In this document: in pieces, positions 46,656-59,564 of the stretch
How positions within the stretch are numbered: position 1 is the first letter of the stretch
Layout of the letters: each line of letters starts with the position of its first letter
Source of the DNA: Escherichia coli
GTDB taxonomy: Bacteria > Pseudomonadota > Gammaproteobacteria > Enterobacterales > Enterobacteriaceae
Direction: 5' to 3' (one strand)
Length of the DNA: 64,000 nucleotides
Assembly: GCF_036507355.1 (NCBI RefSeq)
Contig: NZ_AP027877.1
The notes under the pieces: generated by a model
What the model was told of the DNA's origin: nothing
The model's database searches: none
What the model saw: only the letters and a program-made list of their open reading frames with translations
Program-made: the position numbers and the translations under genes

Positions 46656-46680
46656 GAGCGTTGGTAATTAGAAAGCAAAA

Positions 46681-46705
46681 AGCCTGCTAGAAAGCAGGCT
46701 TTTTT
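46681..46705. terminator. Bidirectional rho-independent terminator between ldtA and tRNA-Asn
   Basis: agcctgct-agaa-agcaggc hairpin with T-runs on both strands. Confidence 0.6.
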
Positions 46706-46710
46706 GAATT

Positions 46711-46786
46711 TGGCTCCTCTGACTGGACTCGAACCAGTGACATACGGATTAACAGTCCGCCGTTCTACCGACTGAACTACAGAGGA
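46711..46786 (-). tRNA. asnV: tRNA-Asn (GUU)
   Basis: Minus strand is a 76-nt tRNA with anticodon loop CTGTTAA and CCA end; identical to the copies at 57216 and 59041. Confidence 0.95.
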
Positions 46787-47111
46787 ATCGTGTGAACGGG
46801 GCGCATATTAATGGCAGTGCATGGTGATGTCAAAGGGTGAAATGCATTTTTTTGTTTGTTTGCTGTCAATTTCAACAAAGTGGTGAGCTTTCAATCTTAT
46901 TGGCAATGAACCATCGTGGTGCATACCCTCCTTTTATTGGGCAGGGGAACGCGACTGCTGATAAAAAGTACCTATGACGAATCTATCATAATCTCTTATT
47001 TGACAGTTGGTTAGCTTGTACATCAACGCCAAAGCAAAACTGGCAAGCATCTTGCAGTCTGGTTGTAAGTAATGGCGGCACTTGGGCCGATTCTCAAAAA
47101 CCGGAGGCAAC

Positions 47112-48029
47112 ATGAACTTCAGACGCCTGAAATACTTCGTAAAAATTGTAGATATTGGTAGCCTGACTCAGGCTGCTGAAGTATTGCATATCGCACAACC
47201 AGCGCTCAGCCAGCAGGTTGCCACACTGGAAGGTGAGTTAAATCAACAACTTTTGATTCGCACAAAACGGGGCGTTACGCCAACAGACGCCGGAAAAATT
47301 CTCTATACCCATGCGCGGGCCATTTTACGTCAGTGTGAGCAGGCCCAACTGGCGGTGCATAACGTTGGTCAGGCATTATCGGGGCAAGTCTCGATTGGCT
47401 TTGCGCCAGGAACCGCTGCGTCATCTATCACCATGCCCTTATTACAAGCGGTTCGCGCTGAATTCCCGGAGATCGTTATCTATCTTCATGAAAATAGCGG
47501 TGCAGTGCTTAACGAAAAACTGATAAATCACCAACTCGATATGGCGGTGATTTATGAGCATTCCCCTGTGGCTGGTGTATCCAGTCAGGCTTTGCTGAAA
47601 GAAGAGCTTTTCCTGGTAGGAACTCAAGATTGCCCGGGGCAAAGCGTTGATGTTAATGCTATTGCGCAAATGAACCTCTTTCTCCCCAGTGATTACAGTG
47701 CTGTTAGACTTCGTGTTGATGAGGCGTTTTCCCTACGGCGACTCACGGCGAAAGTCATTGGTGAAATTGAGTCTATTGCCACGCTTACCGCAGCGATTGC
47801 CAGCGGCATGGGCGTTGCAGTATTACCCGAATCGGCCGCGCGTTCGTTATGTGGCGCAGTAAATGGGTGGATGTCACGCATTACCACGCCTTCCATGAGT
47901 CTCTCTTTGTCATTAAATTTACCCGCCAGAGCGAACTTATCGCCACAGGCACAGGCAGTGAAAGAGTTGTTAATGTCAGTGATTAGTTCTCCAGTGATGG
48001 AAAAAAGGCAGTGGCAATTGGTGTGCTAA
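47112..48029 (+). CDS. nac: Nitrogen assimilation control protein, LysR family (305 aa)
   Basis: Starts MNFRRLKYFVKIVDIGSLTQAAE; LysR HTH. Confidence 0.9.
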   Translation: MNFRRLKYFVKIVDIGSLTQAAEVLHIAQPALSQQVATLEGELNQQLLIRTKRGVTPTDAGKILYTHARAILRQCEQAQLAVHNVGQALSGQVSIGFAPGTAASSITMPLLQAVRAEFPEIVIYLHENSGAVLNEKLINHQLDMAVIYEHSPVAGVSSQALLKEELFLVGTQDCPGQSVDVNAIAQMNLFLPSDYSAVRLRVDEAFSLRRLTAKVIGEIESIATLTAAIASGMGVAVLPESAARSLCGAVNGWMSRITTPSMSLSLSLNLPARANLSPQAQAVKELLMSVISSPVMEKRQWQLVC

Positions 48030-48130
48030 GCGTTATATCGGGATGGAATAAGATGCGGGTTTTTATTATTTGTTATGCCGGGCGTTAGACTTTAACAATA
48101 ACGGGATATCAGAACTGCCCGGAGTTTACC

Positions 48131-49081
48131 GTGAATTTCCAACAACTAAAGATAATCCGCGAAGCTGCACGTCAGGATTACAACCTGACAGAGGTTGCGA
48201 ATATGCTTTTTACCTCACAGTCAGGCGTCAGCCGTCATATTCGGGAACTGGAGGATGAGCTTGGCATCGAAATATTTGTTCGACGAGGTAAGCGACTGCT
48301 GGGCATGACTGAACCGGGCAAAGCATTACTGGTCATTGCAGAACGTATTCTGAATGAAGCCAGTAATGTTCGTCGGCTTGCAGACCTGTTTACCAACGAT
48401 ACGTCTGGCGTTCTCACTATTGCAACGACGCATACTCAGGCACGTTATAGCTTGCCAGAGGTCATTAAAGCTTTTCGCGAACTTTTCCCGGAGGTTCGGC
48501 TCGAGCTAATCCAGGGGACGCCACAGGAAATTGCGACGTTGTTGCAAAATGGTGAAGCTGATATTGGTATCGCCAGCGAGCGTTTGAGTAATGACCCGCA
48601 GCTCGTCGCCTTCCCGTGGTTTCGTTGGCACCATAGTTTGCTTGTTCCACTCGATCATCCCTTGACGCAAATTACACCATTGACGCTGGAATCAATAGCG
48701 AAGTGGCCATTAATCACTTACCGACAGGGTATTACGGGGCGCTCACGCATTGATGACGCATTTGCCCGCAAAGGTTTGCTGGCAGATATTGTATTAAGTG
48801 CGCAGGATTCTGATGTCATTAAAACCTATGTTGCTCTTGGGCTTGGGATCGGAATAGTTGCCGAACAATCCAGCGGCGAACAAGAGGAAGAGAATTTAAT
48901 CCGCCTGGATACGCGGCATCTTTTCGATGCTAATACTGTCTGGTTGGGACTGAAGCGAGGACAACTTCAGCGTAACTATGTCTGGCGCTTTCTGGAACTT
49001 TGTAATGCAGGACTGTCAGTTGAGGATATCAAGCAGCAGGTGATGGAAAACAGTGAAGAGGAAATTGATTATCAGATATAG
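48131..49081 (+). CDS. cbl: CysB-like LysR-family regulator (316 aa)
   Basis: Starts MNFQQLKIIREAARQDYNLTEVA; CysB-like. Confidence 0.9.
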   Translation: MNFQQLKIIREAARQDYNLTEVANMLFTSQSGVSRHIRELEDELGIEIFVRRGKRLLGMTEPGKALLVIAERILNEASNVRRLADLFTNDTSGVLTIATTHTQARYSLPEVIKAFRELFPEVRLELIQGTPQEIATLLQNGEADIGIASERLSNDPQLVAFPWFRWHHSLLVPLDHPLTQITPLTLESIAKWPLITYRQGITGRSRIDDAFARKGLLADIVLSAQDSDVIKTYVALGLGIGIVAEQSSGEQEEENLIRLDTRHLFDANTVWLGLKRGQLQRNYVWRFLELCNAGLSVEDIKQQVMENSEEEIDYQI

Positions 49082-49118
49082 CAAAAAGCCCGCTATAAAA
49101 GCGGGCTTTTCAGAAATC

Positions 49119-49135
49119 TGGCTCCTCTGACTGGA
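49119..49135 (-). other. 17-bp fragment of the tRNA-Asn 3' end (island boundary repeat)
   Basis: tggctcctctgactgga matches the 3' end of tRNA-Asn; with the 5-bp flank aaatc it is a 22-bp direct repeat of 57211-57232. Confidence 0.8.
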
Positions 49136-49808
49136 TGCGGATTTTGTTGTAGTTTATTGAATTTAAATGATTTTTATGAGTAGAATAAAAATAAGGCCCT
49201 TAGAAAGGCCCCTCAGATATTTTTGCTTAAAAAGATGATGTAAGTCACATTTTCAGGGGCTGTTACCTGGAGGTCTTAAAACCAACGAGAGGTCGTCATT
49301 CCTGGCGTATAGCGGGAATGCACCAGACATACAGAAACAGGGACTTGCACCAGCTTTAATATAGCTGGCTGCACCAGATCCTGGCGCTGCAAAAGTCCAT
49401 GATTGCGCCAGATTCTGAGGGATTACATCGATCTGAGCCAGAGTTGTCCCTTTGGGTTATAGCCTTTTCAGGTCAGGTGCTGTTACCCTTAGCTGGCCTT
49501 TACCCTTTTCCTTTTGACCGTCGGCTATGTGCCAAAAGCGGAATTCCAGTGGTTCTAGAAAAGCTATCATTCCATGGTCAAATTTTGTCGATCACTGCAC
49601 TTATGGAACCGCCATAACATAGGTAGATAGTTGAAGATAGCTAGAACGATGATAGATGATTTTCTTTACAGGGCTGACTTCTAGTCTATCTCATGTAATA
49701 CTCTATATTATATCTAATGTACAATATTAATAGCATTGTGATGTATCGACAACATGGATAGTCCACTGCTATTAAAACTATAATGACATTTAATTGAGAA
49801 ATATAAAA

Positions 49809-50826
49809 ATGACTCTATTAGAAAAATTGTTATCAAAAGGATACTTTCCTAAAGAAGCTCTCCCTCCTTTCTCTACGGAAAAATATGCACGCGCAATTGT
49901 GAATGGATACGATAATCTTCCCCAATTATTTAGAACCGGAAAATTCATAAGTAAGTGCGCTATTCATAATATTTCCAGAAAAGGTACATTACGGAGAAAA
50001 CTTGGAATACCTAATCCCATCAACTTCTTTAGATTAAGTGAGGCAATAACTGAAAATTGGTACGATATATATGAATGCGCAAGTGAATCAACAATATCGT
50101 TGACAACTCCAGACCCTGCCAGCAATGGCGGAAGAGCATTCAACCCAAAGCATTCATTAAATGAGCTTCCAGATATTCATGCAAAACTTAGAAGTAAACA
50201 TAAATATATACTTAAAACCGATATAAGCAGATTTTACCACTCAATATACACTCATAGTATTGCATGGACTTACCATACAAAAGATATTTCAAAAAGAAAC
50301 AGAAGCAATAGTTTATTTGGCAATGTATTAGACAAGCATTCGCAAGATTCGCAAGATGGACAAACAATAGGGCTCCCCATTGGTCCAGATACATCACTTA
50401 TCATAGCAGAGTCTCTGTTATCAAATATTGATCTTAAGCTTAGCGAAAAAGGCATTAGCAATGGCTTACGTTATATAGATGATTATTTCCTAGGGTTCAA
50501 TACAATTGGGGAAGCAGAATCTGCATTAACAATAATGCAGGAACTGTTAAACGAATATGAGTTAGCATTGAACCCCTTGAAAACAGAAATCATACAATTA
50601 CCAATTGAATTCGAGCCATTAGCAATTTCAGAACTAAGGGCATTTTCATTTAGAGATACAGCTGGCGGTCAGAAATCAGATTTAATGCATTATTTCAACA
50701 TAGCTTTCAAGGCAGCAAAAGATTTACCAACGGAACCAATATTAAAATATGCAGTATCAAGGACATTTGAAGTAAATGTTACTGCTGAAAACTATCCTGT
50801 TTTTGAAAATTTTATATTACAATGTG
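49809..50826 (+). pseudogene. Reverse transcriptase, N-terminal 339 codons, interrupted by IS1
   Basis: RT motifs DISRFYHSIY, GLPIGPDTSL, YIDDYF (YxDD) and LNPLKTEI; the frame runs straight into the IS1 end at 50827. Confidence 0.8.
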
Positions 50827-50881
50827 GGTGATGCTGCCAACTTACTGATTTAGTGTATGATGGTGTTTTTGAGGTGCTCCA

Positions 50882-51157
50882 GTGGCTTCTGTTTCTATCA
50901 GCTGTCCCTCCTGTTCAGCTACTGACGGGGTGGTGCGTAACGGCAAAAGCACCGCCGGACATCAGCGCTATCTCTGCTCTCACTGTCGTAAAACATGGCA
51001 ACTGCAGTTCACTTACACCGCTTCTCAACCCGGTACGCACCAGAAAATCATTGATATGGCCATGAATGGCGTTGGATGCCGGGCAACAGCCCGCATTATG
51101 GGCGTTGGCCTCAACACGATTTTACGTCACTTAAAAAACTCAGGCCGCAGTCGGTAA
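50882..51157 (+). CDS. insA: IS1 InsA (91 aa)
   Basis: Zinc-finger N-terminus CPSC...CSHC; canonical IS1 ORF. Confidence 0.95.
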
Positions 51158-51579
51158 CCTCGCGCATACAGCCGGGCAGTGACGTCATCGTCTGCGCGGA
51201 AATGGACGAACAGTGGGGCTATGTCGGGGCTAAATCGCGCCAGCGCTGGCTGTTTTACGCGTATGACAGGCTCCGGAAGACGGTTGTTGCGCACGTATTC
51301 GGTGAACGCACGATGGCGACGCTGGGGCGTCTTATGAGCCTGCTGTCACCCTTTGACGTGGTGATATGGATGACGGATGGCTGGCCGCTGTATGAATCCC
51401 GCCTGAAGGGAAAGCTGCACGTAATCAGCAAGCGATATACGCAGCGAATTGAGCGGCATAACCTGAATCTGAGGCAGCACCTGGCACGGCTGGGACGGAA
51501 GTCGCTGTCGTTCTCAAAATCGGTGGAGCTGCATGACAAAGTCATCGGGCATTATCTGAACATAAAACACTATCAATAA
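51076..51579 (+). CDS. insB: IS1 InsB (transposase catalytic part, made as InsAB by frameshift)
   Basis: Canonical IS1 second ORF overlapping insA. Confidence 0.9.
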
Positions 51580-51602
51580 GTTGGAGTCATTACCTACAAT
51601 GT

Positions 51603-51881
51603 GTTACAGCTGACAGTAGCACATTAAAATACACCGTCAATCAGCTTATAAAATACAAAAGAATAGGTTATGTTCAGAACGTTGAGAACATTTCGCATAT
51701 TTTGAGACAATTAGCAATAACTGAAAGCTCACTTGGCCATGGACACGAAGTTGCTTATTGCCTATGGCTTTATTTGATACTACGCATCCCCATACCAGAA
51801 GTCGTCGTTAAAAATGTGGTACCAATGAGAGATCCATTTGTTGCAATTTTGTTATGCGATTGCAGGCAAAAAACCTCATGA
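51603..51881 (+). pseudogene. Reverse transcriptase C-terminal 92 codons displaced by IS1
   Basis: With one copy of the 9-bp duplication removed, the RT frame continues without stops from 51603 to TGA at 51879-51881. Confidence 0.7.
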
Positions 51882-52171
51882 CTTTTATACCTGATTTCTC
51901 AATTTATGAGCAAATGATGGTGATGGAAGAGCTATCGGGCGATATGTAGATTTTTGTCTATGAGATGCTTGCAAAAGGATGGTTTCAACCATTATCAAAC
52001 CAAAATCCAATTAGTCAAAATGAGTGTTATAGGTTCCTATTGAATTCAGGTGTTTTTTTCTATAATGAACATCTCTCATTAACTATTATGGCTGAAAGTC
52101 CAATTGATACAGATGGCTCGGCAGAGGGATTCAGTGGTTGAAATTAAAAATTATCTGTAAATAACTAACCC

Positions 52172-52210
52172 CCCTCCCTTTAATTTAATATTAAGGGAGG
52201 GTTGTGTTTC
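52172..52210 (+). terminator. Hairpin terminator downstream of the RT gene
   Basis: ccctccctt-(12 nt)-aagggaggg perfect 9-bp stem followed by ttgtgtttc; also marks a GC-content transition. Confidence 0.4.
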
Positions 52211-52449
52211 GATATACATATATGGGCTTTGGTGAATAAATCAGATTTGGGATAAACATCCCTGGAGACAGTTGCAGCTGTCAGGTAATACGCACGCTTT
52301 TTGCTCAGAACCCCATCAATGCGCCGCCAGCACTTTTGCAGCCAGCCCAGTCGGGTTACGCCGTCTGGACTCCCAACTTTTGATGATATCGACGCTGGTT
52401 CCTTAGGGTTATTGCGTAACGATTTATTCTGCGCCAGTCATGAAAGCCG

Positions 52450-53409
52450 TTATTCCTTCTTCCATTCGTGCGCGTAAACCTGCTTCACCCAGCGACCGCG
52501 CCCGTCGCCATGCCCCAGGTCCATCGCCACCATTGCCAGCGCCTCTTTTTCGCTGAATCCCTGCGCCAGATACCGGCGAATATCGTCCTGCGCCAGATAC
52601 CGGCGAATATCGTCCTGCGCCCAGGCGTAACGCAGCGAATGTGGGGAGTATTTGCCCGTCAGCCCCATACGCAAAGTCTGGTTGCGCCAGTATTTCATTG
52701 CCTGTTTAAGGCTTGCCGCATCAATCAGCCTGCCGTTGCGCAGTCCTGCCACCACAATGGCATTATCGAGCGCCCGTTTAACTGCGCCAGCATTCTGAAT
52801 AAGGGTATCGCGGGGCCGCCCGCCTTTGGTGCCAAACACGATGGTTAGCCGGGTGGCTCCACGTTCAAGCGACTGCCGCCACGTCAGCAATGAACGTGAA
52901 CAGCGTACCGCCTCCTGTGAACGTAACCCCATCAGCCGCGCCAGCTCCAGCGCTGCCGCCAGTCCTGCGTCTTTCAGCCGGGCAGTCTCTGCCATCTGTT
53001 GATAATATTCCGGCGTGATGGCTTTCCGTGTACCATTGCGGGATACGCCAGCCAGCCCCAGCGATTTATTCGATATCCGCTCACTCTGCGCCAGTTTTTC
53101 GCGCCCGGCCTGCGTCAGTATTTTACGGATAGCCGCCGTTTCGTTATGCAGCGTCTGTTTCTGAATACCCTGCGCCAGTCGCATCTGAATATACGCCTCA
53201 ATATGCTTCGCCTTTAAATGATGGACATAGCGTATCTGAACGTTCAGTTCCGTCAGTCGTTCGCAGAACCGTTCTGCCATGGCGATACGGTCATGGACAG
53301 TCTTGTGCGCCCCGCCAGCCTGCCGCGCCAGGTTTTTCATCTCTCTTTCCAGCATACCCATTTTGCTTTTCCTCTTATCTCGCTCCTGATTTTCACAAAA
53401 CCACAACAC
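52450..53409 (-). CDS. Tyrosine recombinase / phage-integrase-family protein with internal 9-aa tandem duplication (319 aa)
   Basis: C-terminal HSLRY...LGHGDGRGRWVKQVYAH resembles recombinase box II with catalytic Tyr; DDIRRYLAQ is duplicated through a 27-bp tandem repeat at 52561-52614. Confidence 0.6.
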   Translation of the reverse strand: MLWFCENQERDKRKSKMGMLEREMKNLARQAGGAHKTVHDRIAMAERFCERLTELNVQIRYVHHLKAKHIEAYIQMRLAQGIQKQTLHNETAAIRKILTQAGREKLAQSERISNKSLGLAGVSRNGTRKAITPEYYQQMAETARLKDAGLAAALELARLMGLRSQEAVRCSRSLLTWRQSLERGATRLTIVFGTKGGRPRDTLIQNAGAVKRALDNAIVVAGLRNGRLIDAASLKQAMKYWRNQTLRMGLTGKYSPHSLRYAWAQDDIRRYLAQDDIRRYLAQGFSEKEALAMVAMDLGHGDGRGRWVKQVYAHEWKKE

Positions 53410-54253
53410 ACAACGGATACAGCTTTCCCCGGCGCATAGGCCGATAGCCCCTGATTTTTGTCGGGGCTGCGAGCAGTACCTGAGCGCCGGGGCGACGGCT
53501 GTTGAGGTTTTGCGGGGTATCGGTTGTGCTCTCAGAGCAGCCGCCAGCGTGAGCTGGTCATCCCCCGGACCGTCCTGGTGGTCCCCCTCCGGTACTGGCT
53601 CATGTTCTCCTTTGGTGAATGAATGGTTGAAATAAATGCTGAAAAGCGACGTCAGAAGCTCGCCTGTGGCTGGAACAGTTGATATGACTGGTGCAGATGA
53701 AAATTTCTGCGGGCGTCAGTCTCTCACTCTGCGTGAGCGACTGACGCCCTGGTCTGGCGCAGGCGCTGAAAATTACACTCTGGTGCAGGATGGCGGCCAC
53801 GCGGCAGCAAATGCCTTCGGCAAATGCAGGCCGCAGCCCGTCATGTAAAGGGCGCTGGTAATCAGCAGGGTATAAGTGGGCCGGAGAAATTCCGGCAAAG
53901 AGAAACCGTGCAGCCGGTGAAGGCTGTTGCCGTTAAGCGATGACGATGAAGCCGTCCAGTGTATGTACTCTTAGCCTCAAACGCTTTCGCGTTCCGGTAT
54001 TGCGGAGGTCGTACCGGTAGCAGGGGGCTGGTCGTCCTGATAAATCAGGGGCTTCTTGCAGACCATGAAGCCAAAGGGGCTGTCAACCGACAGCTTATTG
54101 CAGGAGAGAGATTACACCGTAATTTCTGGCGCAGAAAGGGGAAACTCATTTTTCTGGAAATTGAGTTTCCCCCTGAATTTATGGAAAGTTTGTGAATGGA
54201 ACACTGCCGCGCTTCGCTTGTCGTCTCCCGGTGTGCGATTTGCTGTATCAGGA

Positions 54254-54502
54254 TCATCGCTTTCGCATGAACCTTTCCAGGCGATTACCTTTGCCGTCGA
54301 AGTATCTGGAAGGCCAGATGATCTCTGGAGCTATCTCCAGCGCATCTGCAATAAGTTTTTCTCCGCGCGGCCACGGGCGGGAAAGTGCATTTGCCAGTGT
54401 GGAAGAACTCAACCCTGCTTTACGCGATACCTCAGCCAGTGAGGTCCCTTTCTTTCTTAATCCGGCAATGATATCTGCCGGATGCCAGTCATCTTTATTC
54501 AT
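54254..54502 (-). CDS. Ner/Nlp-family DNA-binding protein (82 aa)
   Basis: DWHPADIIAGLRKKGTSLAEVSRKAGLSSSTLANALSRPWPRGE closely matches the Ner/Nlp family signature. Confidence 0.8.
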   Translation of the reverse strand: MNKDDWHPADIIAGLRKKGTSLAEVSRKAGLSSSTLANALSRPWPRGEKLIADALEIAPEIIWPSRYFDGKGNRLERFMRKR

Positions 54503-54614
54503 TGTTTTCCCCTGTTTCCAAATCTGGTTTTTCTGACTTTAGGAACTCTAAAGGCAATGAATCTTAAGGAATGCTAAAGATGGTGTCAATGTAACTATTA
54601 ACCAAACAGGTTAT

Positions 54615-54914
54615 ATGATCCCTGAACGACTCAAGGCAGCGAGGTTGCGGGCTAATCTCACCCAGGAACAACTGGGCGTTCGTGCAGGCATCGCCGAAGA
54701 TACGGCCTGCTCCCGGCTTTCTCAGTACGAAAGTGGAACACACAAGCCCACATTCAAAATGGTTTGTGCCTTTGCTCGTGTTTTGCATGTTCCTGAATGT
54801 TACTTCTATGCACAGGAAGACACTTTCGCCGAAGCGATTTTAAGGCTGTATGACGGTGAAACTGTGCAGTGGAATATAAAAACAGAGATCGTTCATCATA
54901 CTGAACGGGTATAA
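54615..54914 (+). CDS. XRE-family HTH regulator, copy 1 (99 aa)
   Basis: HTH region LTQEQLGVRAGIAEDTA...YESGTHKP; paralogue of the next gene. Confidence 0.7.
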   Translation: MIPERLKAARLRANLTQEQLGVRAGIAEDTACSRLSQYESGTHKPTFKMVCAFARVLHVPECYFYAQEDTFAEAILRLYDGETVQWNIKTEIVHHTERV

Positions 54915-55013
54915 ACCTCTTGCCTCATCCATCCTCTTTATGAACTCTAAAGAAAAATGCTCTTGAGGAATGCTAAAGATTACCGTCATAAATTCAAACT
55001 GATGGTAATTTCA

Positions 55014-55283
55014 ATGATCCCCAAACGCTTAAAAGAAGCCAGATTGCGGGCTAAACTCACTCAGGAAAAATTGGGGGTACTGGCGGGTATTGAAGAAGCC
55101 ACGGCTTATTCGCGTCTGTCACATTACGAGAGTGGTACGCATAAACCAACTTTTGATCTCGTTTGTGAGTTTGCCCGAGTACTCAATGTACCAGAATGCT
55201 ATTTCTATACGGTGGATGATGATTTCGCGCAGGCGGTGTTGGATCTTCATGCCAGGTGGACAAAGAGAACTACGGAAAGATAG
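55014..55283 (+). CDS. XRE-family HTH regulator, copy 2 (89 aa)
   Basis: MIPKRLKEARLRAKLTQEKLGV... about 60% identical to copy 1; start aligned to copy 1. Confidence 0.65.
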   Translation: MIPKRLKEARLRAKLTQEKLGVLAGIEEATAYSRLSHYESGTHKPTFDLVCEFARVLNVPECYFYTVDDDFAQAVLDLHARWTKRTTER

Positions 55284-55304
55284 ATCGCAGAAAATAAAAA
55301 ACCC

Positions 55305-55390
55305 CGCTGGTGAGGCAGGGTTCTTTATTTTTCGTTCTCAGACTGCTTATAGCGACCTGAGCAACGTTGCGCGACAATACAATCCTAGCA
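55305..55390 (-). ncRNA. Candidate antisense sRNA antitoxin (Orz/IstR-like), predicted from promoter, repeat and terminator
   Basis: Minus-strand promoter-like elements (-35 ttgcaa, palindromic, at 55419-55424; -10 taaact from 55396-55401); transcript would begin inside repeat 55369-55392 and end at a hairpin plus T-run near 55300-55335. Confidence 0.3.
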
Positions 55391-55418
55391 GAATAAGTTT
55401 AACCCGCTTTGTTTCCCG

Positions 55419-55448
55419 TTGCAAACAAACGCTCCCGGTCTTTATAAT
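55419..55448 (+). promoter_or_regulatory. Sigma70-like promoter for the toxin mRNA (-35 TTGCAA, 18-bp spacer, -10 TATAAT)
   Basis: ttgcaa at 55419-55424 and tataat at 55443-55448 on the plus strand; gives a 5' UTR of roughly 180 nt. Confidence 0.45.
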
Positions 55449-55634
55449 GCCAGACGCTGGGTTTATCACGTTTCAGGCCAGACCGATTTCAAGCCCTGAC
55501 TGCCGGACGGGTGGTGCCGCAGGCAGTGCCCCGGTCTGGAGCGTGATAATACAATCCTAGCAGATGTGATCCTGCGCCGACAGGCAATGTAAGGGTAAGG
55601 TGCAGGCGTTGCGCTCCTTTCATAAGGAGAGCGG

Positions 55635-55724
55635 ATGGACATGTTGACGCGAAAGCTGATCGTGCTCATCGCCGTACTGGAGCTTTTGCTGGCTCTGCTG
55701 CGGTTGATTGATCTGTTGAAATAA
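55635..55724 (+). CDS. Candidate type I toxin, 29-aa hydrophobic peptide MDMLTRKLIVLIAVLELLLALLRLIDLLK
   Basis: ATG at 55635 five nt after AGGAG; single predicted TM helix; similar in length and composition to ZorO/DinQ/TisB-type toxins; followed by a hairpin terminator. Confidence 0.55.
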   Translation: MDMLTRKLIVLIAVLELLLALLRLIDLLK

Positions 55725-55744
55725 TTCTCAGATTGAAACGCACC

Positions 55745-55770
55745 AAAGGGGAAACACCCGTTTCCCCTTT
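55745..55770. terminator. Bidirectional hairpin terminator between the toxin ORF and the integrase gene
   Basis: aaaggggaaac-accc-gtttccccttt with A/T runs on both sides. Confidence 0.6.
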
Positions 55771-55788
55771 AATAAATACGCTGCTTTG

Positions 55789-57066
55789 TTACGACGCCTG
55801 TTTCAGGCGGCGGGCATACTGGTAAGCTGAAACATACCCGTCACTGTTTGCATCAAGATAATCTGACCACCATTGCATCATCTCGATCCGCTCTTCCAGA
55901 TATTCAGCCTTGTGAATATACGCAGCGCGGACGCTGTTTCTTTCCTGGTGACTCATTTGTTTTTCAATCGCTTCTTTGCTCCACAGCCCCGATTCACTCA
56001 ACGCACTACATGCCATCGCCCGGAAGCCATGCCCGCAGACGTCTTTTTTGGTGTCATAGCCCATCACCCGCAGCGCTTTATTCACGGTGTTGTCGCTCAT
56101 GCACTTATCCTGGTCGTACTCGCCGGGAAAGATAAAGGCCAGATGACCGGAGAGGGCTTCGATCTGTTTCAGGATCGCAATTGCCTGATCCGACAGCGGC
56201 ACGATATGTTGAATTTTCATTTTCGACCCCCGGTAAGAGAAGCGCACATTTTCGATCTGCTCGCGTTCTTCCGCGATCACCCACAGCTTTTGCTGCCAGT
56301 CGATTTCACTCCAGCGAGCAAAGCGTAGCTCGCTGGAGCGCACAAAAAATATCAGTGACAACTTAAGGGCGTATTTCGTCAGCAGCCTGCCGCAGTAGTT
56401 ATCCGTACGGGTTAAAAGCTCTGGCAGCCTGTCCAGCGACAGGGCCGGGTAATGATTAGTCTCTGGCGCAGCAAATTCACCATCCAGATACAGCGCGGGG
56501 TTCGCTTTGAGCAACTGCTTTTTCATCGCGTAGTGCATGATGTCGGTGACATAGTTTTTCAGCCGGGCGGTGATCTCCAGAAAGCCTTTGCTCTCCACCT
56601 TACGCAGCGTGACCAGCAAATCCTCTGTTTCGATCTCCCCGATAAGGCGATCCCCGATATCCGGGAAAACATACATTTCCAGTCTGCGCATAACCGTTTT
56701 CGCGTAATGTTCAGACCAGCGTTTATGCTCGCCATGCCAGTTAGTGGCGACCTGGCTGAACGTCTGTCCGTTTTTCTTCTTCTGTTTCTCCGTCTGCTTC
56801 ACCGCAGCAGGATCGACGCCTGCATGAATGTTATTGCGTGCCGCTTCCCGTAAACGGCGAGCCTGCAACAGCGAGATCCCCGGGTAGGGGCCAAAGGCCA
56901 GCTTTTTCTCTTTCCCGTCGATACGGTACTTCATGTACCAGAGTTTTGAGCCATTAGGTTTGATCAACAGGTACAGTCCGGAACTGTCTGTCATTTTGAA
57001 AGGTTTGTCGGAGGGTTTGATCTTGCGAATCGTGGTATCTGTTAATGCCATAGCGGGGGGCTCCAT
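55789..57066 (-). CDS. P4-family tyrosine integrase (425 aa)
   Basis: N-terminal arm-binding domain (LTDTTIRKIKPSDKPFKMTDSSGLYLLIKPNGSKLWYMKYR) plus C-terminal catalytic domain; adjacent to the tRNA-Asn 3' end. Confidence 0.9.
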   Translation of the reverse strand: MEPPAMALTDTTIRKIKPSDKPFKMTDSSGLYLLIKPNGSKLWYMKYRIDGKEKKLAFGPYPGISLLQARRLREAARNNIHAGVDPAAVKQTEKQKKKNGQTFSQVATNWHGEHKRWSEHYAKTVMRRLEMYVFPDIGDRLIGEIETEDLLVTLRKVESKGFLEITARLKNYVTDIMHYAMKKQLLKANPALYLDGEFAAPETNHYPALSLDRLPELLTRTDNYCGRLLTKYALKLSLIFFVRSSELRFARWSEIDWQQKLWVIAEEREQIENVRFSYRGSKMKIQHIVPLSDQAIAILKQIEALSGHLAFIFPGEYDQDKCMSDNTVNKALRVMGYDTKKDVCGHGFRAMACSALSESGLWSKEAIEKQMSHQERNSVRAAYIHKAEYLEERIEMMQWWSDYLDANSDGYVSAYQYARRLKQAS

Positions 57067-57215
57067 TTGCTCACCGAACCGTGAGGCCCCCGATTAAGCC
57101 CACAAAAACTATGGATGTCAAGAAACCCGGTAGCCTCTTGTGAGACAACCGGGTAAAGATAAGTTCTTGTTTTTTAACTATCTCGAGACTCATAGAGATG
57201 TCTCAAAACTAAAAT

Positions 57216-57291
57216 CTGGCTCCTCTGACTGGACTCGAACCAGTGACATACGGATTAACAGTCCGCCGTTCTACCGACTGAACTACAGAGG
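57216..57291 (-). tRNA. asnU: tRNA-Asn (GUU), island integration target
   Basis: 76-nt minus-strand tRNA identical to the other copies. Confidence 0.95.
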
Positions 57292-57452
57292 AATCGCTGT
57301 TGAGGCACATCTTAACGGCGAAAAATCTTTTGTCAAACCCGATTTTTAAATTCCCCAACTGTTTGCCGTTTCTATCAACAGTTTGTTGCATTTGCAGACA
57401 ATTTGTTGGCGAAAATCTTTGCAGCTTTGCTGATTCTCCCTCATTATTTGAA

Positions 57453-58940
57453 ATGTGGTTTCACTTTCTGCAATTAAGGTCGGCTTTGAATATCTCCTCT
57501 GCTTTACGCCAGGTTGTTCACGGCACTCGCTGGCACGCTAAACGCAAGAGCTACAAAGTGTTGTTCTGGCGCGAGATAACCCCGCTTGCTGTTCCTATCT
57601 TCATGGAGAATGCCTGTGTCCTGTTGATGGGGGTTCTGAGCACTTTTCTGGTCAGCTGGCTGGGAAAAGATGCGATGGCCGGCGTGGGATTGGCGGACAG
57701 CTTCAATATGGTCATTATGGCTTTTTTTGCTGCTATCGATCTTGGTACTACTGTCGTTGTGGCATTTAGTCTCGGTAAGCGGGATCGACGACGAGCGAGG
57801 GTGGCGACGCGGCAGTCATTGGTGATCATGACGTTGTTTGCCGTACTGTTGGCAACGCTTATTCATCATTTTGGCGAACAAATTATTGATTTCGTCGCGG
57901 GTGATGCCACGACAGAAGTTAAAGCACTGGCGTTGACTTATCTGGAGCTGACGGTACTCAGTTATCCAGCAGCTGCCATCACTTTGATTGGTAGCGGGGC
58001 ACTTCGTGGTGCAGGGAATACGAAAATACCGCTACTGATTAACGGTAGCCTGAATATTCTTAATATTATTATTAGCGGCATATTGATTTACGGCCTTTTC
58101 TCCTGGCCGGGACTGGGATTTGTCGGGGCTGGGTTGGGTTTAACCATTTCTCGTTATATTGGCGCAGTTGCAATTTTGTGGGTGCTGGCGATTGGTTTTA
58201 ATCCTGCGCTAAGGATTTCGTTAAAGAGCTATTTTAAACCGCTGAATTTTAGCATTATCTGGGAAGTCATGGGGATTGGTATTCCCACGAGTGTCGAATC
58301 AGTGTTATTTACCAGTGGTCGGTTATTAACCCAAATGTTCGTTGCCGGGATGGGGACCAGTGTTATTGCCGGAAATTTTATCGCGTTTTCAATTGCGGCT
58401 CTTATCAACTTACCCGGAAGTGCGCTCGGCTCTGCTTCTACGATCATTACAGGCCGAAGGTTGGGGGTAGGGCAGATAGCGCAAGCAGAGATTCAGTTGC
58501 GGCATGTGTTCTGGCTGTCCACTCTTGGATTAACGACCATCGCCTGGCTAACGGCTCCCTTTGCCGGGGTTATGGCATCGTTTTACACCCAGGATCCACA
58601 GGTTAAACATGTCGTTGTGATTCTGATTTGGCTAAATGCTTTATTTATGCCTATTTGGTCCGCCTCATGGGTGCTACCCGCTGGATTTAAAGGTGCTCGT
58701 GATGCCCGTTACGCCATGTGGGTTTCGATGTTGAGCATGTGGGGTTGTCGGGTTGTCGTCGGTTATGTGCTGGGAATCATGCTTGGCTGGGGTGTGGTTG
58801 GTGTCTGGATGGGAATGTTTGCCGACTGGGCTGTGCGGGCCGTGCTGTTTTACTGGCGAATGGTTACTGGACGTTGGCTATGGAAATACCCTCGATCCGA
58901 GCCGCAAAAGTGTGAAAAAAAGCCAGTTGTGTCGGAATAA
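57453..58940 (+). CDS. yeeO: MATE-family efflux transporter (495 aa)
   Basis: 12-TM MATE protein; start set at ATG 57453 because the track start 57300 abuts the tRNA. Confidence 0.8.
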   Translation: MWFHFLQLRSALNISSALRQVVHGTRWHAKRKSYKVLFWREITPLAVPIFMENACVLLMGVLSTFLVSWLGKDAMAGVGLADSFNMVIMAFFAAIDLGTTVVVAFSLGKRDRRRARVATRQSLVIMTLFAVLLATLIHHFGEQIIDFVAGDATTEVKALALTYLELTVLSYPAAAITLIGSGALRGAGNTKIPLLINGSLNILNIIISGILIYGLFSWPGLGFVGAGLGLTISRYIGAVAILWVLAIGFNPALRISLKSYFKPLNFSIIWEVMGIGIPTSVESVLFTSGRLLTQMFVAGMGTSVIAGNFIAFSIAALINLPGSALGSASTIITGRRLGVGQIAQAEIQLRHVFWLSTLGLTTIAWLTAPFAGVMASFYTQDPQVKHVVVILIWLNALFMPIWSASWVLPAGFKGARDARYAMWVSMLSMWGCRVVVGYVLGIMLGWGVVGVWMGMFADWAVRAVLFYWRMVTGRWLWKYPRSEPQKCEKKPVVSE

Positions 58941-59040
58941 ACGACAAAATGCAGATTATTTCAGCAAACGATTTCAAATTTAAAAAACAGGCTTTGACAT
59001 TGTGGGTGGGCATCGCTAATATTCGCCTCGTTCTCACGAT

Positions 59041-59116
59041 TCCTCTGTAGTTCAGTCGGTAGAACGGCGGACTGTTAATCCGTATGTCACTGGTTCGAGT
59101 CCAGTCAGAGGAGCCA
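59041..59116 (+). tRNA. asnW: tRNA-Asn (GUU)
   Basis: tcctctgtagttcagtcggtagaacggcggactgttaatccgtatgtcactggttcgagtccagtcagaggagcca. Confidence 0.95.
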
Positions 59117-59564
59117 AATTTTAGTTTTGAGACATCTCTATGAGTCTCAAGGCAGTTAAAAAATAAAAATTATTTTTACCCGGTCACTTTGTAAAAAAGC
59201 GACCGGGTTTTTTGATATCTGTGTTTCGTGCGCTTAATCGAGCCTCACGCTTCAGTGAGCAAATTGCCCTCCCCAACAGACATCACGATTTGCAAGGTCA
59301 AAATCTCTGTTCCATGAAGTACCGTACAAAGATAAAGAGAACAATGCTTTATGCGGGATGTTGCTGTCGTGTCTTTATCGGGAAACTATACGTAATTACC
59401 ACTTGCCTTCTGTAATCAGAAAAAGAAGACCTGGAATTTTAATAAATATTATTTCTCTGGGGGAATTTTTATAATCAATATGACGAGTTGAATATTATAT
59501 TTTTTATAAGGATTATATGAGATTAAAGAAATCTGCCATAAAGACAGATTTCTTTAAAATATAA

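Follow-up and report, generated by a model that had tools for sequence, protein, structure and literature searches.

An 8.1-kb P4-type-integrase island at the 3' end of asnU, and an apparent fossil of a related island behind asnW, in an Escherichia coli chromosome

We analysed a stretch of 64,000 nucleotides of Escherichia coli DNA (RefSeq assembly GCF_036507355.1, contig NZ_AP027877.1; the whole stretch is called the window below), in which an earlier note, made from the sequence alone, had described three identical tRNA-Asn genes, a 17-nt fragment of such a gene, and an island next to the middle copy. The part of the window from 44 to 64 kb matches E. coli chromosomes, and the gene order, taken from the RefSeq annotation of the matching genomes, is cobU-cobS-cobT-ldtA-tRNA-nac-cbl-[island]-tRNA-yeeO-tRNA-yeeN-amn-shiA. 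Judged by this synteny, the locus is the asnV-nac-cbl-asnU-yeeO-asnW cluster of E. coli. ARAGORN found exactly three tRNA-Asn(GTT) genes in the window, all with a cloverleaf and the anticodon GTT, and each scored 72.6 bits on the Rfam tRNA model (gathering score 29). The coordinates given before for the outer two genes were confirmed, while the middle gene had been placed one base too low (57216-57291). The genes and the main parts of the island at asnU are as follows.

46711-46786, minus strand: asnV, tRNA-Asn(GUU), between ldtA and nac by synteny; unoccupied
57217-57292, minus strand: asnU, tRNA-Asn(GUU), between cbl and yeeO; occupied
59041-59116, plus strand: asnW, tRNA-Asn(GUU), between yeeO and yeeN
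49136-57216, minus strand: genomic island in asnU, 8,081 bp, with low GC (0.35-0.39) in the cargo region
49114-49135, minus strand: distal direct repeat (attachment, or att, junction), made of 17 nt of tRNA 3' end (49119-49135) and 5 nt of trailer
49083-49111, minus strand: native asnU terminator, 8.1 kb away from its tRNA; contiguous with asnU in an island-free strain
55789-57066, minus strand: P4-type tyrosine integrase, 425 aa, with the Pfam domains Arm-DNA-bind_3, Phage_int_M and Phage_integrase; phrog_1 integrase

The names asnV (46711), asnU (57217) and asnW (59041) were assigned from the description by Auvray et al. (PMC8209727), in which the asnW-asnU-asnV region measures 4,309 bp and contains yeeO, cbl and a second LysR-family gene. 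In the window, the interval 46711-59116 comes to 4,308 bp once the island and one copy of the repeat are subtracted, in agreement with this value. Alignment of the three genes showed 76 of 76 columns to be invariant, so that the identity of the copies, also reported in PMC8209727, held on close comparison. Of the four identical asparagine-tRNA genes that E. coli possesses, three are thus in the window, and asnT is outside it. Because the genes are identical, every asn 3' end offers the same 17-nt bacterial attachment site (attB) to tRNA-Asn integrases.

The best explanation of the whole, in which we have high confidence, is that an 8.1-kb island with a P4-type integrase was inserted exactly at the 3' end of asnU. 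The 17-mer TGGCTCCTCTGACTGGA, complementary to the 3' end of the tRNA, has exactly four occurrences (in the three genes and at 49119-49135), against 0.01 expected from shuffled sequences. The full direct repeat is 22 nt long, 49114-49135 being identical to 57212-57233. Strain 2017.01.04CC, which is free of the island, has the cbl stop codon, a terminator hairpin and asnU in direct succession. When the window was aligned to this strain, the distal junction corresponded to the left half of the empty site, through the 17 nt, and the tRNA junction to the right half. Because both junctions match the halves of this empty site, the insertion is precise and spans 49136-57216 (8,081 bp). The integrase gene begins 150 nt downstream of asnU and is co-oriented with it, and most E. 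coli genomes lack the asnU island. The 17-nt fragment was therefore correctly described as exact, and the empty-site alignment, together with the integrase adjoining the tRNA, identifies it as the distal att repeat of the island.

Alternatively, the fragment might be all that remains of a fifth tRNA-Asn gene that has decayed. It is indeed an exact tRNA 3' end and is followed by a tRNA-type terminator resembling that of asnV. However, this terminator is found directly behind an intact asnU in island-free strains, the fragment is bordered on its other side by the conserved distal arm that the islands of this family share, and neither ARAGORN nor Rfam detected more tRNA-like sequence next to it. 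A decayed fifth gene is thus ruled out by the empty-site alignment, and we consider it to have virtually no chance of being correct. The displaced asnU terminator (49083-49111) shares 85.7% identity with the asnV trailer, a likeness consistent with an ancient duplication that included both tRNA and terminator.

Integration would have resulted from recombination between the attachment site of the element (attP) and attB, catalysed by Int inside the 17-nt core. The island brings a fresh copy of the last 17 nt, which keeps the tRNA intact, and the original 17 nt and the native terminator have been shifted by 8.1 kb, to 49083-49135. The junctions of a related island in strain A30 (an island-type G after CCA on the tRNA side and the native A at the distal junction) fit a crossover inside the 17-nt core. 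Three points weigh against the reading of the element as an island integrated in this way, or as one that can still move. Both junctions in the window (49118 and 57216) have a G after CCA on the tRNA strand, which a simple crossover in the 17-nt core does not predict; with the island-type base at both junctions, the repeat in the window reaches 22 nt. A domain search, the only one made for it, revealed no AlpA/Xis-type directionality factor among the scanned island open reading frames (ORFs). Finally, a single assembled sequence cannot reveal an excised circle or an attP junction, and present mobility is unproven.

The earlier note had also stated that only the middle copy is occupied by an island. 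This is correct for asnU, as indicated by the precise empty site and the integrase next to the tRNA, and for asnV, which is unoccupied in the window, but asnW is not a plain empty site, since a fixed relic of a related island is found there (see below). The comparison of flanks across strains that had been proposed showed occupied asnT, asnU and asnV in other strains, and an empty asnU in 2017.01.04CC and A30.

The following elements of the integrase-side arm of the island and of the asnW flank have to be considered here.

57180-57209, minus strand: hairpin 1 of the integrase-side arm, 12 pairs in the minimum free energy (MFE) fold; contains the palindrome 57185-57204
57125-57154, minus strand: hairpin 2 of the arm, terminator-like, ACCCGG...CCGGGUUUCUUG, followed by UUUCUU
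59117 to about 59344, plus strand: relic of an island of the same family, about 230 nt, with hairpins 1 and 2, decayed integrase 5' sequence and a deletion of about 66 nt
59124-59153, plus strand: relic hairpin 1, 12 pairs in the MFE fold
59178-59213, plus strand: relic hairpin 2 and U6 terminator (stem-loop 59178-59208, then UUUUUU)

The 20-nt palindrome GAGACTCATAGAGATGTCTC is present, exact and on opposite strands, at 57185-57204 and 59129-59148 (0 expected by chance), at an equal distance from the 3' ends of asnU and asnW. It had been taken for a conserved terminator shared by the two tRNA copies. The palindrome is common to both flanks, as claimed, but it is not the native terminator of these genes. 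In detail, the alternative would be that a native terminator was inherited by asnU and asnW when the tRNA was duplicated, and that asnW is a pristine empty site. The identity and equal offset of the 20-mer, its folding into a stable hairpin and the conservation of the asnW trailer in 5,406 of 5,426 genomes are all in line with this. On the other hand, the trailer of the empty asnU in 2017.01.04CC and A30 is a different one (aatttctgaaaagcccgc...) that lacks the palindrome; in other strains, no palindrome is seen behind asnT, asnU or asnV unless an island is present; it has no U-tract on its 3' side; and the homology at asnW runs on for about 200 nt, into the integrase coding sequence. We therefore regard a native terminator as very improbable. 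Since the palindrome is missing from empty asnU and present behind asnT, asnU and asnV only with an island, it is island DNA. Thus, a flank that two tRNA copies have in common need not be a native terminator and may instead be of island origin, which matters whenever comparison is used to define att sites or "empty" reference sites.

Further evidence that asnW once received an island came from the alignment of asnW and its trailer with the tRNA, arm and integrase 5' end of the asnU island, which showed 81.7% identity over 278 nt (including the 76 identical nt of the tRNA). The first 33 nt past CCA are the same in the asnW trailer and the island arm except for one base. A second high-scoring segment pair (59298-59344 with 56949-56903) is located inside the integrase ORF, and a deletion of about 66 nt separates the two matches. 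In our survey of 5,426 complete E. coli genomes, the relic was found in 5,406, with a coverage of at least 80% in 5,190. K-12 has it as well, with no annotation at that place. On this nucleotide homology, asnW appears to be a site that bears the fixed fossil of a related island and not a pristine empty site. The translated relic speaks less clearly for this: on comparison of the asnW-yeeN spacer with the integrase by tblastn, the matches, although colinear with residues 9-19 and 39-59, were not significant alone (E = 0.28 and 0.38), so that the call of a relic rests on nucleotide homology and colinearity. A search with the 17-mer revealed no surviving distal repeat between asnW and yeeN.

The simplest history would be that asnW received an island of the same family long ago and that the island body and the native trailer were later deleted. 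The island-derived hairpin 2 and its U6 tract (59178-59213) would then be the sole terminator-like element left there, and would now act as the terminator of asnW. One may also imagine that descent went the other way, the two-hairpin trailer being native to asnW and captured by the island family, e.g. by imprecise excision, so that asnW never held an island. The near-identity of the first 33 nt after CCA, and the fixation of the asnW trailer in the species, speak for such a capture. Yet the asnW flank contains decayed matches, in colinear order, to integrase codons of about 9-19 and about 39-55 with the deletion of about 66 nt between them, arms of the same type are found in Klebsiella, Phytobacter and E. 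whittamii, and in Enterobacillus a stump made of the arm and integrase residues 1-36 adjoins a copy of the tRNA-Asn 3' core. Given the sequence of integrase origin at asnW and the similar stump in Enterobacillus, reversed descent is unlikely, with a probability that we would put at only slightly above that of a native terminator. Insertion followed by deletion is thus the history that we favour for asnW, and it puts on record an unannotated integrase fossil in nearly all E. coli.

Two other observations were made on this region. The segments 57016-57292 and 59041-59302 form an inverted repeat of about 278 nt that flanks yeeO, with 82% identity overall and 100% in the 76-nt tRNA part. Inversions of this region have been reported in pks-positive strains (PMC8209727), and the repeat is a possible substrate for them. 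Besides, the asnW-yeeN spacer (59117-59520) shares only 90-95% identity with nearly all other E. coli, as compared with about 98.5% for the flanking genes, and it is therefore unusually fast-evolving.

The integrase-side arm of the island contains two hairpins, which we assessed by folding and covariation in place of a simple terminator scan. Hairpin 1, which includes the palindrome, is a stable, G+C-rich stem-loop, but it is followed by AGUUAAAAAA and not by a U-tract. Hairpin 2 (ACCCGG...CCGGG), found about 25 nt further downstream, has a U-rich tail. The folding z-scores were -5.4 and -5.8. In an alignment of 14 arms from five genera, the consensus fold retained both hairpins, and 7 of the 22 pairs showed double-sided compensatory changes, two of them in hairpin 1 (where there are only two allelic types) and five in hairpin 2. 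Hairpin 2 would end transcription of the tRNA, so that transcripts started at the tRNA promoter would not run on into the co-oriented integrase gene, while hairpin 1 would either serve in the processing or stability of the RNA or be bound by a protein as part of the att arm.

We tentatively propose, though we would not count on it, that this two-hairpin arm is a portable 3'-end cassette for tRNA genes, consisting of a processing or protein-binding hairpin and a terminator, which has been domesticated at asnW. In such a scheme, the island family must carry the cassette because integration replaces the trailer of the host. If this were true, a core tRNA gene of essentially every E. coli, K-12 included, would depend on a 3' end and a termination signal derived from a mobile element. 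Some findings weigh against our reading of the two hairpins: the simple terminator scan listed neither of them, the covariation in hairpin 1 may stem from a single event, and a symmetric protein-binding site would give an equal pattern. We also considered that the palindrome might be common to all asn-tRNA islands, but the arm of the high-pathogenicity island (HPI) of strain 118UI turned out to be unrelated.

We then determined the distribution of the island in the same survey. With the segment 44000-64000 of the window as a query, the exact island was found in one genome (strain G4/9) of 5,426, and this strain was also the sole match (1 of 5,426) for the DNA of the reverse transcriptase cargo. 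Apart from lacking an IS1 copy, the island of G4/9 is 99.9% identical to that of the window. The integrase was present (coverage of at least 80%) in 83 of the 5,426 genomes by megablast and in 105 by blastn, and the whole backbone in 25. The island family is thus rare in E. coli. Its members in other strains occupy three of the asn genes.

CREC-2, asnT: cargo, a 438-aa unknown protein
A30, asnV: cargo, a 1,210-aa unknown protein; RelE/ParE pair in the toxin-antitoxin slot
SC477, asnV: cargo, an ABC-three-component system
SC477, asnU: cargo, unnamed hypothetical genes

The backbone and both arms are conserved among these islands, and the cargo differs. The order is integrase, toxin-antitoxin slot, two helix-turn-helix (HTH) genes, Ner-like gene, EFASI RNA, Integrase_1 gene, variable cargo slot and distal arm. 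The borders of the cargo differ between islands (52305 versus 52466-52473 on one side, 49247 versus 49543 on the other). The fact that they are not at one fixed point suggests that cargo is exchanged by homologous recombination between the conserved flanks. We also considered site-specific, integron-like exchange by the Integrase_1 gene, and rejected it on account of the variable borders and of the lack, in a comparison of repeats, of any boundary repeat shared by the cargo borders. Active exchange of cargo by the Integrase_1/EFASI module is a more distant possibility, against which the variable borders argue. The family adds to the record a rare, small type of island with a swappable, defence-type cargo slot, for which asnT, asnU and asnV are all usable.

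Arms of the same type are also found outside E. coli. They adjoin a full-length integrase gene in E. whittamii and, in Klebsiella spallanzanii, an integrase gene that could be followed up to the end of the examined locus. In Phytobacter and Enterobacillus the arm is present as stumps. That of Enterobacillus tribolii (locus L008, 11409-11675) is located next to a copy of the tRNA-Asn 3' core and retains only integrase residues 1-36; that of Phytobacter massiliensis (locus L007, 8481-8609) is likewise located next to a tRNA-Asn 3' core copy and has no integrase at all. Truncation of this kind therefore recurs. A scan of about 100,000 species genomes for the exact pattern of the arm gave six loci and missed the E. 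coli representative; such misses are likely due to single-base variants, e.g. AGCTTT in A30.

The remaining contents of the island in the window are the following.

49136-49247: conserved distal arm, with 74-88% identity to the islands of SC477, CREC-2 and A30, and a conserved ...aaaatccgca beside the core
49809-51881, plus strand: cargo, gene of a DRT4/DRT6-like antiviral reverse transcriptase, split by IS1
50827-51594, plus strand: IS1 (insA/insB), 768 bp, with the 9-bp target duplication TACAATGTG at 50818-50826 and 51595-51603
52450-53409, minus strand: second tyrosine-recombinase-like gene, with Pfam Integrase_1 and Phage_int_SAM_2
53470-53603, minus strand: EFASI RNA motif (Rfam RF02957), 112 bits (gathering score 51), just upstream of the Integrase_1 gene
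54254-54502, minus strand: Ner/SfsB-like HTH_35 gene, in the regulatory module 54254-55283
54615-54914 and 54957-55283, plus strand: two HTH_3 genes, in the same regulatory module
55296-55371, minus strand: OrzO-like small RNA (sRNA) of a zorO-orzO-like type I toxin-antitoxin module (55296-55724)
55635-55724, plus strand: 29-aa toxin ORF of this zorO-orzO-like module

The cargo gene, which is split by IS1, matched the Drt4 and Drt6 profiles of PADLOC about equally well (E = 2.4e-148 and 3.8e-148), and its score with the Drt4 model of NCBIfam was 209.6 bits, compared with a cut-off of 450. The annotation shows a reverse transcriptase of 431 aa followed by an overlapping ORF of 87 aa (49809-52141; locus L001, 6810-8365), and the two align, one after the other, with single Drt4/Drt6 profiles (positions 3-436 and 443-507 of 541). 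Because of this match, the reverse transcriptase gene may already be frameshifted in G4/9 as well.

The small module next to the integrase is similar to the zorO-orzO module of E. coli O157:H7. The 29-aa ORF (MDMLTRKLIVLIAVLELLLALLRLIDLLK) is identical to the published ZorO at 25 of 29 positions, including the ALLRL motif, and an OrzO-P-like sRNA is found on the strand opposite the toxin ORF. Furthermore, a 24-nt repeat (55369-55392 and 55541-55564) provides complementarity at 22 of 24 positions between the region of the sRNA gene and the 5' untranslated region of the toxin. The differences are that the sRNA in the window scored 47.8 bits, below the Rfam gathering score of 60, and that the locus is inside a mobile island, in the slot where the island of A30 has its RelE/ParE pair.

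Copies of the EFASI/Integrase_1 module (about 1.8 kb, 52408-54200) with 90-95% identity are found in many other E. coli islands. They include a larger asnT island with a PAAR effector (locus L013, 9001-10775) and a site next to a tRNA-Thr gene beside a dnd/dpt system (locus L014, 9001-10770). Inside the Integrase_1 gene there is a perfect 27-nt tandem duplication (52560-52613), corresponding to an in-frame repeat of the nine residues YLAQDDIRR. The interval that separates the Ner-like gene from the EFASI motif contains a near-perfect palindrome of 17+17 nt (53711-53749; 94% complementary, 5-nt spacer), possibly an operator or a hairpin.

The arrangement at asnU is a textbook case of tRNA-targeted integration, at an E. 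coli hotspot that is well known. Both the pks island and HPI insert at the 3' end of asnT, asnU, asnV or asnW, any of the identical copies being usable, and have a P4-type integrase directly downstream of the tRNA and flanking direct repeats of 17 bp (PMC8209727). The island in the window resembles the pks (colibactin) island and the HPI of E. coli/Yersinia in all these respects: the asn 3'-end site, the P4-type integrase adjoining the tRNA, the 17-bp repeats and the use of several asn copies. In contrast, these are virulence or metabolite islands of 35-54 kb, compared with 8.1 kb here, and the cargo of the present island is an anti-phage-type reverse transcriptase. For the HPI, the arm from asnT to the integrase has no palindrome and is not alignable with ours beyond the tRNA core, and the integrase DNA aligns with no more than 27% of the query, at 73.6%. 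The island is thus a rare new example of a known island type, and the fossil at asnW a modest curiosity, which leaves the present understanding of tRNA-targeted integration unchanged. What is gained for this strain is a corrected map of the asn-tRNA hotspot, with empty, occupied and fossil sites told apart.

ROD21 itself is located at an Asn-tRNA gene. Enterobacteriaceae-associated ROD21-like (EARL) islands are excisable islands of Enterobacterales with a conserved integration/excision module, in which a SEN1998-type directionality factor of 60-72 aa is almost always present (PMC8844411). No SEN1998-like gene was found in the island by domain search, SEN1998 itself not having been compared. 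The backbone also differs from that of the EARL islands, in that it consists of Ner-like and HTH_3 genes, the EFASI RNA and Integrase_1.

With defence islands that have a variable slot, the family shares a constant backbone in which one slot varies: it contains the DRT-like reverse transcriptase in the window, SC477 has the ABC-three-component system there, and the islands of A30 and CREC-2 encode large, uncharacterised proteins. It differs from them in the variable position of its cargo borders and in that domain and phrog scans of the island revealed no genes for phage-satellite functions (primase, capsid size or packaging). In the literature, we found nothing specific on a defence hotspot at yeeO or tRNA-Asn.

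Outside the island, a native intrinsic terminator was identified behind asnV, and promoter-like sites were found at the tRNA genes.

46677-46704, minus strand: native intrinsic terminator of asnV, a 12-bp stem followed by a T run, from a terminator scan and folding
46805-46833, minus strand: sigma-70-like promoter of asnV, TTGACA-17-TAATAT, by consensus match only
57309-57336: promoter-like site of asnU
58994-59022: promoter-like site of asnW

The promoter-like site of each of the three tRNA genes has a perfect TTGACA -35 hexamer.

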